64,000 nucleotides of DNA from an uncultured Bacteriovorax sp. (GTDB taxonomy: Bacteria > Bdellovibrionota > UBA1018). Location of the stretch: contig CAZDSX010000004.1 of assembly GCA_964508305.1 (NCBI GenBank), positions 3,359 through 67,358 of the forward strand, written 5' to 3'. Every line of letters starts with the position of its first letter. Within the stretch, counting starts at the first letter, position 1. The notes beneath the pieces are model-generated. The model was not told the origin of the DNA. It ran no database searches and saw only the letters and a program-made list of their open reading frames with translations. Shown here one piece after another: positions 12,695 through 54,500 of this stretch. The translations under genes and the position numbers were made by a program.

Positions 12695-12771
12695 GGCTGG
12701 GTAGCTCAGATGGTTAGAGCGGCGGATTCATAACCCGCAGGTCGGCAGTTCGATCCTGCCCTCAGCCACCA
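12695..12771 (+). tRNA. tRNA with CAU anticodon (elongator Met or lysidine-modified Ile2), CCA encoded
   Basis: Cloverleaf folded by hand: acceptor GGCTGGG/CTCAGCC with one G-U pair; D-arm GCTC-AGATGGTTA-GAGC; anticodon arm GCGGA-TTCATAA-CCCGC with a 31:39 A-C mismatch; T-arm GGCAG-TTCGATC-CTGCC; discriminator A. G1-C72 is paired, so it is not an initiator tRNA. Confidence 0.85.
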
Positions 12772-33456: not shown

Positions 33457-34455
33457 GTGATCCGATTGCCGGGCTCACTGTTTCTAAAAAGGGGTATTGT
33501 CAGTGCAAGCCTGTGCCTCGGTGCATGCGCGCATGCACCACCGCCGTCCACGGCAAGCTGGATTGCCATGGGAACCCGTGTCGAGCTGAGGGGGCCGGGC
33601 TGCGTCGATCAGGGTACTCGAATTCGACTCGGGAACGAGGCAATGGCCGTGATTCGCGAGACCGAGAGCCGCTATTCGACCTGGCTTCCCGATTCACCGC
33701 TTTCGCGACTCAACCAGCTTCGCTCCCAAGCCATTCCTAAGGTCAACCCTGAACTGGATCGCCTTTTCGAAGAGCTCGAGCGGGTGATCGAGCTCTCTCT
33801 CGCCTGGGAGGGCGCCTTCCATCCGGGCCTCGGACGCTGGATCCTCGCGGGTGGCGCTCGCGAAGGCAAGGCACCTGAGGCAGCCAGATTGAAAGCCCTG
33901 GGAACCCCGCCCCGGATCTCCGCTCTTCGCAGGTTTCCCCGAGGGTCCAGAGTCAAAAAGGCGCTCGAAGACCCAAGATGGGTGTTTGAGGAAGGAGGCT
34001 TCGCCAAGGGGCTTGCGCTGGATTTGGCAGTAAAATCCTTTGATCTCACGGCGTCCCAGTGCAGCGTGGAGCTGAACCTGGGCGGACAACTGATCCACCG
34101 CGGCCCCAGCCCCAGTCGTGTTCATGTTGCATCACCCACGAATCGATCCGAGGCCTGGGTCGAAGTCACGATCCACAACGAGTCGGTCGCGACATCAGGA
34201 CAATCGGAGCAACCCGGACATATCCTTGACCCTCGCACTGGCCTCCCCACTCCGCGACTTGGCTCCGCCACTGTACTCCACGCATCGGCACTGATGGCCG
34301 ACATCGGGGCCACAGCACTGGCAGTGCTCGGCCCGCACGCGACTCCTTGGGTGGACTGGCTCTACCTCACCCCTGACGGGCACGCCTATGCTCCCGTCAG
34401 GCTCAAGGGTCGACTGAGGCCCCTGCGTCCACTCCAGTGGCACTGGGTGGATTGA
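33457..34455 (+). CDS. apbE: FAD:protein FMN transferase ApbE (lipoprotein)
   Basis: Lipobox LCLGAC. ApbE motifs AMGTRVEL, GGFAKGLALD, SVATSGQSEQ...HILDPRTGLP. Confidence 0.85.
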   Translation: MIRLPGSLFLKRGIVSASLCLGACAHAPPPSTASWIAMGTRVELRGPGCVDQGTRIRLGNEAMAVIRETESRYSTWLPDSPLSRLNQLRSQAIPKVNPELDRLFEELERVIELSLAWEGAFHPGLGRWILAGGAREGKAPEAARLKALGTPPRISALRRFPRGSRVKKALEDPRWVFEEGGFAKGLALDLAVKSFDLTASQCSVELNLGGQLIHRGPSPSRVHVASPTNRSEAWVEVTIHNESVATSGQSEQPGHILDPRTGLPTPRLGSATVLHASALMADIGATALAVLGPHATPWVDWLYLTPDGHAYAPVRLKGRLRPLRPLQWHWVD

Positions 34456-34476
34456 CATCCGCCAGTGCCAGCGCTA

Positions 34477-34496
34477 TTGAGACTCATTATCAATAA
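34477..34496. promoter_or_regulatory. candidate Fur box (TGAGACTCATTATCA)
   Basis: The right half-site ATTATCA is perfect and the overall shape is 7-1-7 compared with TGATAATnATTATCA. Located 15-35 nt upstream of the fur start. Confidence 0.45.
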
Positions 34497-34510
34497 CGCG
34501 CTTTAGACCG

Positions 34511-35050
34511 ATGATGAACAAAAAACCCAGGCCCACGCTCCAGTGCGGCAGGCCGGCCCAGGCGCCCGCCAGAATCAGCCCCGCCGAAGTTGCAGCATAC
34601 AGACAGAAACTCTCCCACTACCTCTCCAAGAGCGGAGGGCGCTTCACCGAGCCTCGATGGCAGGTGGCGCTTGCGATCCTGGATGCGGGCCGGCACCTCG
34701 ATTCAGGAGCGATCGTGGAGCGAGTCAAACGCACCGACCCCCGGATCGGTGCTGCCACCGTATACAGAGCCATCAAACTGCTTTGTGACGCCGGAATCCT
34801 TGAGGAATCCCATCAGGGCGCGACCGGCAAGACCGTCTACGAACTCTGCGGCGATGAACACCATGACCATATCGTCTGCAGCGACTGCGGGGCAGTGTTC
34901 GAGTTCCATGACCGAGCACTTGAGAAGGCGCAGGAAGAGATCGCTTCGAAGGAAGGCTTCAAGCTTGAAGGCCACCGGCATGTACTCATGGGGCGCTGTG
35001 CCTGGCTTTCAAAGGAAAACTCACCAAAAAACAAAGGGGCCCGCAGATGA
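34511..35050 (+). CDS. Fur-family metalloregulator (Fur/Zur/PerR)
   Basis: Winged-helix N-terminus and C-terminal HHDHIVCSDCG metal-binding cluster. Confidence 0.85.
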   Translation: MMNKKPRPTLQCGRPAQAPARISPAEVAAYRQKLSHYLSKSGGRFTEPRWQVALAILDAGRHLDSGAIVERVKRTDPRIGAATVYRAIKLLCDAGILEESHQGATGKTVYELCGDEHHDHIVCSDCGAVFEFHDRALEKAQEEIASKEGFKLEGHRHVLMGRCAWLSKENSPKNKGARR

Positions 35051-36363
35051 AGTTGAAACCCACCGGTATGCTGATCGTACTTTGGATCGCCCTGCTGGGC
35101 CATGGAGCCGTCATGGCTCGGGCCGAGACGGGGACTGCAGAGCTTGAGCGCCGAATCGATCTTCTTGCACAGGAACTCGAAAATCTCCGGCTCGGCGAAG
35201 TCTCTGCCAAAGCCGATCAGCGCCAGCATGGACTGGGACCTGCTGCATCCAAAGTCTACCGCAACAAGACCGGTGTCTCGATCGGCGGCTATGGAGAGCT
35301 CGTCTACCAGGACTTTGATGCCACCCGTGACTCGGGCGCAAGCATCCCTCCCCAGGACCAGGTCAATTTTCAGAGGCTGGTCCTCTATTTCGGATACAAG
35401 TTCAGTGACAAACTCCTGCTCAATACGGAGCTTGAATTCGAGCACGCAAGCAGCAGCGGCAACCGCGCAGGCCAGAACGGCTCGTGGGGCCTGGAGTTTG
35501 CCTACATTGACTACCAGATCGATCCCGCGCTCAGCGTACGAGCGGGCAATCTGCTCCTCCCCATGGGATGGATCAACGAGCTGCATGAGCCCACCGTCTT
35601 CCTCGGCGTGAGGCGGCCCGACGTCGAACTCGCCATCTTGCCCTCGACCTGGCGGGAGAACGGCGTGGGACTCTATGGGGAACTGGGGAATTGGAGTTAT
35701 CGCACCTACCTCATCAATGGTTTTGATGCCGGCGGCTGCCGTGCGGCGAGCTGCGGAAACGGCGGTTTTGATTCCACGGGAATTCGCCAGGGACGGCAGA
35801 ACGGCTCAAGGGCCCTGGCCCAGGACCCGGCATGGGTGAGTCGCCTGGACTGGACGCCGATCGCCGGTGCGACGCTCGGCGGAGCCTTTTACGCGGGCGA
35901 TGCCGGACAGGACCAAACGACGAACAGCACTCCCGATCTCCCCATCCGGATTGCCGACCTTCATCTTGAATACAGGCGAGCAGGATGGGACGCGCGCGCC
36001 CTTGCCGCAGCAAGCTGGATCCAGAATACGGCAGCACTCAACACTGCAAGGTCACTCTCGGGCGCCAATGGAGTGGGCTCAAGGCAGTACGGCTGCTATG
36101 CGCAGCTCGGGCGGGTTTTCGGGGCCGAGTCGGGATCCGCATGGGTCAAGACCCCATTTCTTCGCTATGAACAGTGGAACTCCCAATGGTCAGTGCCAGC
36201 CGGTTTTGATCGAAATCCTGCAAATGCCCAACGAAGCCTGACACTGGGGCTTCAATTGAAGTCACTGGACCAGCTGGTGCTCACGGCAGAACTCCAGGAC
36301 TTCAGCAACGGAGCGAATACGGGGCTCGATCAACTCAATCTTGGAATGGGGTTCATCTTTTGA
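35047..36363 (+). CDS. outer-membrane beta-barrel porin-like protein (N-terminal coiled coil; OprO/P-like)
   Basis: Signal peptide. Coiled coil ELERRIDLLAQELENLR. Alternating amphipathic beta-strands. C-terminal aromatic GMGFIF terminus typical of outer-membrane proteins. ATGA overlap with fur. Confidence 0.6.
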   Translation: MKLKPTGMLIVLWIALLGHGAVMARAETGTAELERRIDLLAQELENLRLGEVSAKADQRQHGLGPAASKVYRNKTGVSIGGYGELVYQDFDATRDSGASIPPQDQVNFQRLVLYFGYKFSDKLLLNTELEFEHASSSGNRAGQNGSWGLEFAYIDYQIDPALSVRAGNLLLPMGWINELHEPTVFLGVRRPDVELAILPSTWRENGVGLYGELGNWSYRTYLINGFDAGGCRAASCGNGGFDSTGIRQGRQNGSRALAQDPAWVSRLDWTPIAGATLGGAFYAGDAGQDQTTNSTPDLPIRIADLHLEYRRAGWDARALAAASWIQNTAALNTARSLSGANGVGSRQYGCYAQLGRVFGAESGSAWVKTPFLRYEQWNSQWSVPAGFDRNPANAQRSLTLGLQLKSLDQLVLTAELQDFSNGANTGLDQLNLGMGFIF

Positions 36364-36893
36364 AGGCAGGCCTGCTCCAACTCATGGCAATCACTCCTGC
36401 GATTGCTTCAATCGCTCCCCATGCTCACGCCAAGGTCTTCCAAGGCACTGAGGCCTTCCTGTCCGGGCTTGCAGGGTCCTGTCCGATCCAAAAGACGACC
36501 CACTACCTCACCGCCGAGCAGCTGGGCCGCCTGGGCAGGGTGCCGACGGCCATCATCGTGAGGTATCAAATCGCCTGCGCAAGCTTGGGTTCGAAATGGG
36601 TCTACTTCGACTCTCATCGAGTGCGGACCCAGTCGGAGACGCTTGCGATCGTGATCGGTGGCGACTCGAGGCTCGAGGAGGTTCGAGTACTGTCATTTGA
36701 CGAGCCCGAGGAGTACCTCCCCAAGCCCAAGTGGTTCCAGGTGTTTACCGGAAAGGGACTCTCCCCGAGCCTTGCACTTCAAGCCGACATTCCGATGATC
36801 ACGGGCGCCACCCTCTCCGCCCGCTCAGCCACCGAGGCAGTACGAAGGACCCTCTCCATCCATCGCGAGATCGGCAAGGAGGGAACCCAGTGA
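36360..36893 (+). CDS. periplasmic FMN-binding-domain protein (probable ApbE flavinylation substrate)
   Basis: Signal peptide. FMN_bind signature DIPMITGATLSARS matches the flavinylation motif [IV][ST]GAT[L][ST]. ATGA overlap with the porin gene. Confidence 0.65.
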   Translation: MKAGLLQLMAITPAIASIAPHAHAKVFQGTEAFLSGLAGSCPIQKTTHYLTAEQLGRLGRVPTAIIVRYQIACASLGSKWVYFDSHRVRTQSETLAIVIGGDSRLEEVRVLSFDEPEEYLPKPKWFQVFTGKGLSPSLALQADIPMITGATLSARSATEAVRRTLSIHREIGKEGTQ

Positions 36894-37342
36894 GCAGCCG
36901 GATGAGCCCCAGAACCAGGGGCGTATTCCACGGCGGAAACCTCTGGGTGGGAGCAAGCGGAGTCCTCTATGCCGTAATCAAATGGCTGGTTCCGAAACCT
37001 GCCTCGGAGTTCGGGATAGCAGTGCACCCCTGGGAGCCTGCCCTCAAGGCGCTCCACCTGGCCACTTCTCCATTGTTGGTTTTTGCCATCGGCTGGCTCT
37101 GGCACTCCCACGTTCAAGGACAGCTCCGACGAAGCGGGCGGAAAAAACGCGTCTCGGGGATGAGCCTTGTCCTTCTGGCTGCGCCTATGGTTTTTTCGGG
37201 CATTTTTTACCAAATCGCAGTGAGCGAGGCGGCCCGGACATTTTGGTCACAGGTCCATCTCTGGTGCGGGATGGCATGGATCGCAGGATCGTTAGCGCAT
37301 TGGGAGCACTTGAGATCCATTTTCAAGCAAGGCCGGTCTTAG
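36890..37342 (+). CDS. His-rich 4-TM membrane protein (possibly cytochrome-b/DUF4405-like)
   Basis: GTG at 36890 overlaps the previous stop and is preceded by AAGGAGGG. Four predicted helices with conserved-looking His residues (WLWHSHV, HLWCG, AHWEHL). Confidence 0.5.
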   Translation: MSSRMSPRTRGVFHGGNLWVGASGVLYAVIKWLVPKPASEFGIAVHPWEPALKALHLATSPLLVFAIGWLWHSHVQGQLRRSGRKKRVSGMSLVLLAAPMVFSGIFYQIAVSEAARTFWSQVHLWCGMAWIAGSLAHWEHLRSIFKQGRS

Positions 37343-38085
37343 AACGCGTCGGTCTCGTCTTCGAAGTCACGCTTGATGCTATCGATGCTTGAATCGGCAT
37401 CGGAGCTTGCTTCAGCCTCGAAATCATCATCATTTTCCTCGAGGTCGAGATCCACGATGACCTTGGCAAATTCCTTGTCGTTGGCGAGGTCCTGGCGGAT
37501 CGCTTCGATGTACTTCTCAGGATACTTGGCCACGAGCTCTTCGATGTACTGGTTGAGCTTGCCTTCCTTGAGGATGACTTCCTTGCGCTTAATCTTCTTC
37601 CAATTCTTGATGTAGTGCAGGCGGCAGTATCCGGCCGAAGTGCCGAGGCCTTCGCAGGCCACCTCGCGGCAGACCGTATCGAAGGTCGGCTCCACGGTCA
37701 GGCGTCCCATCAGGCGTTCGGTGACTCTTTCAACGGCGGCGGCAGCTGCGCTGACTGCCTTCGCAGAAGCCTTGGCCGCCTTGGCAGAGGGTGCCTTGCC
37801 AGAGGGTACCTTGACCGAGCCGGCCTTCGCGGGAGCGGACTTGGCGACAGCCTTGAGGGGTAGCGACTGCTGGACTGGAGCCTTGCCTGCGGCCTTGGTT
37901 GCTGCTGCCTTGGGGGCCGCCTTTGCCGCGGGCTTGGTGGTCGACTTGACTGCCTTGACGGCGGCCTTGACGGCGCCCTTCAAAGTCTTGCTGATCGACG
38001 AGCCCTTTGAGGGCTGGTACTTCATGTGAGTCGGCTTCTGGACGGAGGCGGACTTGCGGGCAGGATTGTTCTTTCGAGCAGCCAT
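37339..38085 (-). CDS. lysine/alanine-rich histone H1/AlgP-like protein with a Cys/His C-terminal domain and acidic tail
   Basis: N-terminal KAAxK/AKAA repeats of ~110 aa. C-terminal module CREVACEGLGTSAGYCRLH (Cx4Cx9CxxH). Terminal DDDFEAEASSDADSS acidic tail. RBS GAGG upstream of ATG 38083-38085. Confidence 0.6.
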   Translation of the reverse strand: MAARKNNPARKSASVQKPTHMKYQPSKGSSISKTLKGAVKAAVKAVKSTTKPAAKAAPKAAATKAAGKAPVQQSLPLKAVAKSAPAKAGSVKVPSGKAPSAKAAKASAKAVSAAAAAVERVTERLMGRLTVEPTFDTVCREVACEGLGTSAGYCRLHYIKNWKKIKRKEVILKEGKLNQYIEELVAKYPEKYIEAIRQDLANDKEFAKVIVDLDLEENDDDFEAEASSDADSSIDSIKRDFEDETDAF

Positions 38086-53889: not shown

Positions 53890-54500
53890 TTGCCGTCCTT
53901 TGACAGAAAGAACCGATCCAAAAGGTCGACCAGGCTATGGACGACAAAGATGTGGGTTTCTTGAATGCGGCTGGAGTTCTTGCCGGCACTCGCATTCAGC
54001 GCGATATCCGCAAGAGCAGCAAGCTTTCCTCCCGAGCCTCCGGTCAAGCTGATCACCTTGCAGCCCTTGGACCGCGCCGACTCGACGGCTCTCACCACAC
54101 TCGGACTGTTTCCCGAGGTCGAAATCGCAATCAACACATCTTGCGCTTTAGCCAGGGCTTCCACCTGCCTCGAAAACACGAACTCATAACCATAATCATT
54201 GGCGAGCGCCGTCAGATTGGAACTGTCCGTCGTCAAGGCAATGGCTGGAAGCGCCCTGCGCTCCATGAGCATGCGGCCCACCATCTCGGCCGCCATGTGC
54301 TGGGCGTCGGCCGCCGAGCCTCCATTGCCACAGATCAGGACCTTGCCGCCTCCAGCGAGGCAATGTCCAAGTAGCTCCGAAGCTTTGACGAGCAGGCCCC
54401 CGGATTCCTTCAAAAATTGCTCCCGGATGGCCGTTGACTCAGCCGAAGTTTGGGTGAGATAGTCCAGCGGCGCCTGCATCGAATCAGAACTGGGTGACAT
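53886..54500 (-). CDS. gmhA: SIS-domain phosphoheptose isomerase (GmhA/DiaA family)
   Basis: CGNGGSAADAQHMAAEM closely matches the GmhA GNGGSAADAQHF motif. ATGA overlap with the RDD gene. Confidence 0.8.
   Translation of the reverse strand: MSPSSDSMQAPLDYLTQTSAESTAIREQFLKESGGLLVKASELLGHCLAGGGKVLICGNGGSAADAQHMAAEMVGRMLMERRALPAIALTTDSSNLTALANDYGYEFVFSRQVEALAKAQDVLIAISTSGNSPSVVRAVESARSKGCKVISLTGGSGGKLAALADIALNASAGKNSSRIQETHIFVVHSLVDLLDRFFLSKDGK

Follow-up and report, generated by a model that had tools for sequence, protein, structure and literature searches.

We analysed a stretch of 64,000 nucleotides from an uncultured Bacteriovorax sp. (contig CAZDSX010000004.1; hereafter the window, 64 kb with 60% G+C) and found that five genes at positions 33457-37342 include a cassette, conserved among several bacterial phyla, for an ApbE flavin transferase, an outer-membrane porin, a periplasmic FMN_bind protein and a small membrane protein with four transmembrane (TM) helices. 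The fifth gene encodes a Fur-family regulator. Judged from the sequence and its relatives, the whole appears to be a Fur-repressed, envelope-spanning accessory module for iron acquisition, a reading that we consider reasonably probable. An earlier note on this DNA, made from the letters alone, had put forward a flavoprotein redox system outside the cytosol, regulated by iron and serving to reduce and take up ferric iron, and in silico the proposal gained support from the flavinylation motif, the linkage of the genes and the phylogenetic footprinting of their operator. The five open reading frames (ORFs) that it had placed on one strand were all confirmed on the + strand (Table 1). It had also described the last four genes as coupled through ATGA and GTGA overlaps. 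The junctions are ATGA for fur/porin, TTGA (with a TTG start) for porin/FMN_bind and GTGA for FMN_bind/4-TM, so that these genes can be regarded as translationally coupled, the middle junction alone being of another type than described. For the last gene, the mechanical ORF start is 36731 and the coupled start is the GTG at 36890, which overlaps the FMN_bind stop codon.

To see how widely the arrangement occurs, related loci were collected through alignment of the porin, with one genome scanned per species. Porin relatives were found in at least 571 species genomes, and the matches listed included Thermoanaerobaculia and other Acidobacteriota, Gemmatimonadota, Bdellovibrionota, Planctomycetota, Elusimicrobiota, Kiritimatiellae and Eisenbacteria. 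ORFs were then called in 85 porin loci and searched with profiles built for this analysis. Downstream of the porin, the FMN_bind gene was present in 82 loci and the 4-TM gene in 75, and ApbE adjoined the porin in 64 of the 70 loci that had room for it; the context survey suggested by the earlier note thus revealed a conserved linkage. When the other neighbouring ORFs (about 80 loci) were clustered, the groups obtained reflected lineage synteny (ClpX, TyrRS, citrate synthase and similar) or antisense artefacts and nothing else. Since no further recurrent family emerged, the core is limited to four genes, namely those for ApbE, the porin, the FMN_bind protein and the 4-TM protein. FMN_bind relatives on divergent metagenomic contigs showed the order Fur-porin-FMN_bind-4TM, with ApbE adjacent or not. 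The lineage of the window carries a rearranged cassette in which fur and its operator are inserted between apbE and the porin gene. In P0002, which has the closest full-length FMN_bind homologue (59% identity), a gene for a CCP_MauG di-haem cytochrome c peroxidase lies between apbE and fur.

The genes upstream of the cassette point to iron. Among the 48 loci with more than 6 kb of upstream sequence, Fur was found in 19, the permease FTR1 in 15 and FeoB in 8, and at least one of these three in 24. Three layouts could be distinguished in relatives: Fur-FTR1/FtrD-like-FtsX-FtsX-ABC-ApbE-porin-FMN_bind-4TM, Fur-FeoA-FeoB-ApbE-porin-FMN_bind-4TM and the bare ApbE-porin-FMN_bind-4TM.

The gap between apbE and fur is 55 nt long, and it is here that a putative Fur box had been noticed. 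We read a putative sigma-70 promoter of the fur operon from the sequence; its perfect -35 hexamer, TTGACA, overlaps the apbE stop codon. A consensus scan for sigma-70 promoters and terminators called no promoter in this region, because the -10 element is weak. The relative L002, whose proteins are about 45-63% identical to those of the window, keeps the same promoter/operator layout before fur (TTGACA-17-TATTGAGA...ATCAATAACG, compared with the TTGACA-17-TATTGA spacing of the window). The candidate operator is a 29-bp near-palindrome, GCGCTATTGA-N9-TCAATAACGC, whose core TGAGACTCATTATCA (34478-34492) differs from the 7-1-7 Fur box TGATAATNATTATCA at two positions and is the sole match with two mismatches or fewer in the 64 kb; matches with up to three mismatches are expected by chance 0.30 times per window. 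One such three-mismatch match, at 54184, was dismissed as lying inside a coding ORF. The 7-1-7 core was used in place of the 19-bp E. coli Fur consensus, to which no match at three mismatches or fewer was found. The operator is predicted to overlap the -10 element and the likely transcription start, which, as read from the sequence, is the classical geometry of repression. The suspected Fur box therefore stands, being unique in the window at two mismatches and positioned over the -10.

A hairpin at 34438-34470 straddles the apbE stop codon (RNA folding free energy -25.8 kcal/mol, z -2.8). It is built on a perfect 9-bp inverted repeat, TGGCACTGG/CCAGTGCCA, that extends to a stem of about 15 bp; its loop holds the TTGACA hexamer, and no U-tract follows the stem. 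This structure may be a 3'-end or insulator element that separates apbE from the fur operon. As both hairpin and promoter lie between the two genes, apbE probably has its own transcript here.

The operator is also conserved in relatives. A search of 1.09 Mb of related loci for the canonical 7-1-7 Fur box with at most two mismatches found 10 sites, all 10 of them at the 5' edge of a cassette, a count that is independent of any training. A position weight matrix (PWM) seeded on these sites converged on TGAGAYT-N-ARTCTCA, so that the operator consensus in these phyla is not TGATAAT-N-ATTATCA. With this matrix, and in the loci on which it had been refined, sites of at least 16 bits numbered 54 in the 58 kb around the starts of Fur, ApbE and porin genes against 18 in the remaining 1.04 Mb, which amounts to a 54-fold enrichment at cassette heads; shuffled loci gave 13 sites at the same threshold. 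PWM scoring, which had been suggested as a check on the Fur box, gave the window operator 23.2 bits, the highest score in the window, and a cassette-head site was present in 44 of 68 related loci. The matches were often paired 15-mers offset by 6 bp (L061, 1407/1413; L060, 6926/6932; L083, 6615/6621; L026, 1100/1106). In the model of Baichoo and Helmann, such pairs characterise classical Fur boxes, which are bound by two dimers. Iron control of the cassette is supported by this footprinting together with the Fur/FeoB/FTR1 linkage in 24 of 48 loci.

The regulator was readily recognised as the Fur-family protein that had been claimed (PF01475, 107.2 bits against a cut-off of 23.1). Its best NCBIfam model was Fur PRK09462 with 95.4 bits, compared with at most 38 for PerR, 30 for Irr and 28 for Zur; by these profile scores it is much closer to Fur than to the other three. 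An N-terminal extension of about 35 aa precedes the Fur domain (window 34511-34615) and is conserved in relatives, and its L(Q/K)CGR motif is common to the window and L002 (4160-4230). The ApbE protein was equally clear at the level of the Pfam family (PF02424, 113.7 bits against 25.6). It reached only 35.7 bits with the NCBIfam E. coli-type equivalog, whose cut-off is 498, and is accordingly not an orthologue of that type. Its N-terminus, ...SASLCLGAC, appeared lipobox-like when judged by eye only.

The proposed flavinylation substrate, a periplasmic FMN_bind protein with the motif ITGATLS, was upheld, in part by a marginal score: it reached 22.4 bits against a Pfam cut-off of 22 (PF04205). 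The family profile aligned over its full length with RnfG (9eri_G) at E 1.1e-6, and in this alignment the TGAT of ITGATLS fell on the RnfG flavinylation site, TGSTIT. Within the motif, G149 was invariant in 31 relatives and A150 and T151 were at least 90% conserved. The protein begins with a signal peptide ending in AHA|K. The same 31 relatives share family-specific invariant residues (H86, R89, E93, E115, Y119 and W125), and residues 84-125 contain two motifs, D-x-HRVRT-x-x-E and F-D/N-EPxEY-x-P...W, that are absent from RnfG. These HRVRT..E and FDEPxEY motifs could provide, beside the flavin, a site for metal binding or for the docking of a partner. RnfG and NqrC have the same domain and the same [S/T]GA[S/T] flavinylation site. 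They are membrane-anchored subunits of the Rnf and Nqr complexes, whereas the cassette protein has a cleavable-looking signal peptide and stands outside any such complex.

The 4-TM protein belongs to a family of 1,097 cluster representatives, as found by an exhaustive profile search. Its AlphaFold2 (AF2) model consists of four helices (predicted local distance difference test score, pLDDT, 81.9). Among 115 relatives with identities as low as 22%, no columns were invariant other than G24, H56, P61, H74, H123 and H137; H46, in a periplasmic HPxEP loop, was nearly so. H56 and H74 are on TM2 and H123 and H137 on TM4, at matched depths: H56 and H123 near the periplasmic ends, H74 and H137 near the cytoplasmic ends. 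The TM2-TM3 loop was assigned to the cytoplasmic side because it is rich in Arg and Lys. Two His on each of these helices is the helix-B/helix-D pattern of di-haem cytochromes b, and on sequence grounds we infer that the protein is a minimal di-haem cytochrome b. The helices and the His residues had been described in the earlier note and held; of the Pfam families that it had named for a check, DUF4405 and PepSY_TM, neither was confirmed. No Pfam family scored above threshold, DUF4405 (PF14358) reaching 16.2 bits against 26.7 (E 0.015). The commonest sub-threshold matches among the 115 relatives were to DUF4405 (23, best E 0.0016) and Ni_hydr_CYTB (21). Having the four transmembrane His as its most conserved residues (115 sequences) is a feature of the DUF4405 type, whereas the six TM helices of the characterised DUF4405 member (PMC11334425) contrast with four in a protein of 150 aa. 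A sequence search of the PDB returned nothing meaningful for this protein, fold searches were non-specific, and hhalign comparison of the family with E. coli CybB was negative. An assignment to cytochrome b561 (PF01292) or DUF4405 was dropped in view of the CybB result and the Pfam scores under threshold.

Several metagenomic relatives (P0208, P0268, P0299, P0315, P0334 and P0263) have the 4-TM protein fused to a C-terminal ApbE, and in these fusions a fifth hydrophobic segment is predicted to place ApbE outside the cytoplasm. In L002 (6585-7919) and L003 the 4-TM protein is fused to an Amidohydro_2 domain. An apparent FMN_bind-4TM fusion in P0324 looks like a frameshift artefact and was set aside.

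The porin had been described as an outer-membrane barrel with an N-terminal coiled coil, for which the profile Porin_O_P was suggested. The fold was confirmed by the AF2 model, which has 16 strands (pLDDT 82.4; predicted template-modelling score, pTM, 0.80), a signal peptide, a helix at residues 27-49 and a long loop (171-202) between strands 5 and 6, where general porins have their L3 constriction loop. Membership in the profile was not confirmed (PF07396, 17.4 bits, under the cut-off of 20.9), and a PDB sequence search with the porin gave nothing meaningful. With more than 2,500 homologues, about 50% identical over 93% of the length, the barrel family is large. The closest named relative comes from a metagenome-assembled genome (MAG) labelled 'Pseudomonadota bacterium' (60% identity), and Bdellovibrionales MAGs were among the more distant matches (42-47%). 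Three motifs are invariant: NSEIEFEH (126-133), NELHEP (177-182, in the loop) and TWRENG (201-206). In a crude alternate-residue analysis, E84, E128, E130, E132, D155, E204 and D268 were predicted to face the lumen, and lumen-facing residues comprised 13 Asp and Glu against 7 Lys and Arg; the pore thus looks cation-leaning, unlike that of OprP.

The nearest structural comparisons are OprP/OprO and the coiled-coil porin DcaP, to which the cassette porin is only 14% identical. OprP and OprO are phosphate-selective channels, whose anion selectivity stems from an arginine ladder and a lysine cluster; by the same crude analysis the conserved lumen residues of the cassette porin are mainly Glu, Asp and His, together with the NELHEP loop, and its regulation and neighbours are related to iron, not to phosphate. 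By analogy, the porin would act like a substrate-specific OprP-type channel, yet by sequence it falls outside that family. MnoP, by function, appears to be its nearest precedent as a metal-specific porin. It is regulated by Mur, a Fur-family regulator, and offers an example of a metal-cation-specific porin under such control that serves high-affinity metal uptake. MnoP is a Mn2+-selective outer-membrane channel of Bradyrhizobium (cited in PMC6011978) and, unlike the cassette porin, is not known to be associated with redox proteins; the likeness is drawn from function.

On the basis of these results, the module might work as follows. When iron is scarce, Fur would leave the promoter-overlapping operator before fur, and fur, the porin, FMN_bind and 4-TM genes would then be transcribed as one coupled operon. 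The 4-TM protein, carrying bis-His haems near each membrane face, would draw electrons from the quinol pool of the membrane and hand them to the periplasmic FMN_bind protein, which ApbE would have flavinylated covalently on Thr151. The reduced flavoprotein could reduce Fe(III) or keep iron ferrous. Iron would enter through the dedicated, presumably trimeric OprP/DcaP-like porin, with its constriction and barrel wall rich in Glu and His, and Fe(II) would be imported by FeoB- or FTR1-type transporters, which are encoded in cis in many relatives and would be encoded elsewhere in this genome. A low-potential FMN is a good reductant of Fe(III) and a poor oxidant of Fe(II); reduction is favoured over oxidation because of this low potential, the linkage to Feo and published precedent. 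It is conceivable, albeit doubtful in our judgement, that the cassette is something more ambitious: a self-contained, TonB-independent front end of iron uptake, common in Acidobacteriota, Gemmatimonadota and Bdellovibrionota, which would join the first iron-cation-selective porin (an OprP fold with a Glu/His ladder for the Arg ladder), a covalent flavoprotein with its own His/Glu metal site and the smallest known di-haem cytochrome b (four helices, 150 aa) in a new class of envelope-spanning assimilatory iron reductase.

Several observations weigh against an iron-acquisition module. There is no FeoB or FTR1 gene in the 64-kb window, where P19/ABC genes are likewise absent, and in half of the related loci neither Fur nor an importer gene lies within 8 kb. 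The regulator stays under the NCBIfam Fur equivalog cut-off (95.4 bits against 146). The operator PWM is partly circular, since the loci that it scored had also served to refine it, only the seed step being independent. Sub-threshold matches of the 4-TM relatives extend to the unrelated membrane families Acyl_transf_3 and CopD. In addition, a narrow OprP-type pore would suit ions and not Fe(III) chelates or siderophores, so the need for a reductase is not obvious. As an alternative, the 4-TM protein could be, instead of a cytochrome, a metal permease or metal-binding protein that, together with the porin, would complete a route for iron from the outer to the inner membrane, the flavoprotein receiving its electrons from elsewhere. 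Such a permease would agree with the lack of a significant match to any haem family, with the sub-threshold CopD matches in 10 of 115 relatives and with the lack of a separate importer near the cassette in the window and in half of the related loci. We nevertheless regard it as unlikely: the four invariant His form two pairs, each on one of two alternate helices and at matching depths, the membrane part shows no conserved motif of acidic or polar residues for transport, and a flavinylated protein in the periplasm must receive its electrons from a membrane donor, of which the cassette encodes no other. The ApbE fusions also tie the 4-TM protein to flavin electron transfer, and DUF4405, PepSY and MsrQ are precedents with the same His logic (PMC11334425).

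The question of direction is a separate one. If electrons flowed in reverse, the flavoprotein and the 4-TM protein would accept the electrons of Fe(II) oxidised in the periplasm, an oxidation coupled to Fe(III) permeation of the FTR1 type. In FtrABCD the part of electron acceptor falls to FtrB and FtrD, and in P19-FTR1 clusters perhaps to thioredoxin-like proteins. The position of the cassette directly after an FTR1/FtrD-like permease and FtsX-FtsX-ABC in 15 of 48 loci would fit, as would the replacement of thioredoxin-like genes by FMN-binding genes, whose role is undefined, in P19/FTR1 clusters (Meheust et al., PMC8238504). However, in 8 of 48 loci the cassette follows FeoAB, an Fe(II) importer that requires no oxidation, low-potential FMN would oxidise Fe(II) poorly, and no FTR1 is encoded in the window; reverse flow thus seems improbable. 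The redox defence that had been raised as an alternative, in which a PerR-like Fur-family regulator would govern protection from peroxide or redox stress, for example flavoprotein-driven periplasmic repair or detoxification, gained little support. The CCP_MauG gene between apbE and fur in one close relative is in its favour, and the subtype of a Fur-family protein is not provable from sequence when the score lies under the equivalog cut-off. Yet the regulator, with its HHDH motif, scores 95 bits to Fur against at most 38 to PerR models, the operator resembles a Fur box, and the recurrent neighbours are Feo and FTR1 rather than catalase, AhpC or Msr genes, so that we consider stress defence very unlikely. 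Finally, the porin and the flavoprotein might form a trans-outer-membrane conduit for dissimilatory extracellular electron transfer like MtrAB, with flavin replacing the haems. A barrel, a periplasmic redox protein and an inner-membrane donor are a superficial parallel to porin-cytochrome complexes, and conservation of the barrel is unusually high, with about 50% identity across phyla; we would nonetheless give this possibility hardly any weight.

An iron-acquisition role has close relatives in the literature. Flavinylation clusters with membrane cytochromes (PepSY-like of the FoxB/VciB type, MsrQ-like and DUF4405) have been tied to iron assimilation (Meheust et al. 2021, PMC8238504; Huang et al. 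2024, PMC11334425), and in Caulobacter the Fur-repressed ApbE cluster CC_3059-3063 is induced 12- to 44-fold under low iron (PMC3751524). These flavinylation-linked cytochrome systems share with the cassette ApbE, a secreted flavinylation substrate and a His-bearing membrane protein, as well as Fur control, linkage to ferrous-iron transporters and a membrane component whose His residues are conserved best. They differ in that the cassette membrane component has 150 aa and four TM helices and scores under the DUF4405, PepSY and MsrQ Pfam thresholds, that the substrate is RnfG-like FMN_bind where the published cytochrome systems have DUF2271 or Flavodoxin_4, and that the porin, constant in the cassette, is absent from the accounts in PMC8238504 and PMC11334425. 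Clusters of P19/FTR1 (cFtr1-P19, FtrABCD-like) with an FMN-binding gene (PMC8238504) are matched by the 15 of 48 relatives that join the cassette to FTR1-FtsX-FtsX-ABC under Fur; the published examples are mostly Gram-positive and lack the porin and the 4-TM protein, and the cassette, unlike them, also pairs with FeoAB.

ApbE and FMN_bind lie two genes apart, both with N-terminal signal-like sequences, which agrees with the cluster definition of Meheust et al. (2021): ApbE and/or an FMN_bind gene within five genes, at least one of them with a signal peptide or lipidation site. A Pfam scan of the cluster found none of their ten key transmembrane components (Nqr, Rnf, NapH-like, MsrQ-like, PepSY-like, DsbD and others), which places the cassette in their 'no core transmembrane system' class. 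The membrane component eludes the Pfam-based keys of the surveys. Targeted literature searches found no description of the cassette as a unit. The arrangement had been said not to be a described textbook operon, and this applies to the cassette with its porin, which is outside both systematic surveys; it does not apply to the general kind, since ApbE-dependent extracytosolic electron transfer from flavinylated proteins with a membrane cytochrome, often for iron assimilation, is known and published (PMC8238504, PMC11334425).

The usual explanation of how iron passes the outer membrane invokes TonB-dependent receptors for chelates. Beyond a few model organisms, little is understood of the passage of free or weakly complexed iron or of the reduction of periplasmic Fe(III) that serves Feo or FTR1, and the carriers of the cassette belong to phyla that dominate soils and sediments and are almost without genetics. 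If our reading is correct, a dedicated porin would be added to the repertoire of flavinylation-based electron transfer, bioenergetics and protein design would gain a minimal cytochrome b scaffold in the 4-TM protein, and the Fur-box variant TGAGAYT-N-ARTCTCA could serve to map the iron regulons of these phyla. Four families now annotated 'hypothetical protein' would receive functional names. The cassette would thus extend an existing paradigm rather than overturn it.

Table 1. Coordinates of the genes and regulatory features of the cassette region in the window
Feature	Position	Strand	Details
apbE, flavin adenine dinucleotide (FAD):protein flavin mononucleotide (FMN) transferase, probable lipoprotein	33457..34455	+	Pfam ApbE 113.7 bits, E 1.4e-32
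Putative sigma-70 promoter of the fur operon	34452..34480	+	TTGACA 34452-34457, 17-nt spacer, TATTGA 34475-34480; read from sequence
Putative Fur operator, 29-bp near-palindrome	34471..34499	.	GCGCTATTGA-N9-TCAATAACGC, containing the 7-1-7 core TGAGACTCATTATCA at 34478-34492
fur-family metalloregulator gene, 179 aa	34511..35050	+	PF01475 107.2 bits; HHDH and CxxC motifs
Outer-membrane 16-stranded porin, 438 aa	35047..36363	+	Signal peptide, coiled-coil helix 27-49, L3-like loop 171-202
Periplasmic RnfG-like FMN_bind protein, 177 aa from TTG 36360	36360..36893	+	Pfam FMN_bind 22.4 bits; motif ITGATLS
Small 4-TM inner-membrane protein, 150 aa, GTG start	36890..37342	+	AF2 model with four helices, invariant His

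An Rfam scan of the window gave a tRNA at 12695-12768 (62 bits) as its sole match and no riboswitch or small RNA family near the operon. The second highest score with the operator PWM in the window, 20.2 bits, belongs to TGAGATCCATTTTCA at 37311-37325, within the last codons of the 4-TM gene. About 0.1 such matches are expected per window, and this one is probably due to chance, since the C-terminus differs in a 95%-identical relative (P0062). A convergent gene on the - strand (37339-38085) encodes a product of 248 aa with a Lys/Ala-rich, histone-H1-like N-terminal half, for which a Pfam search found no match. Its 3' end (37339-37342) overlaps the final 4 nt of the 4-TM gene, stop codon included, and the end of the operon was therefore set at 37342.

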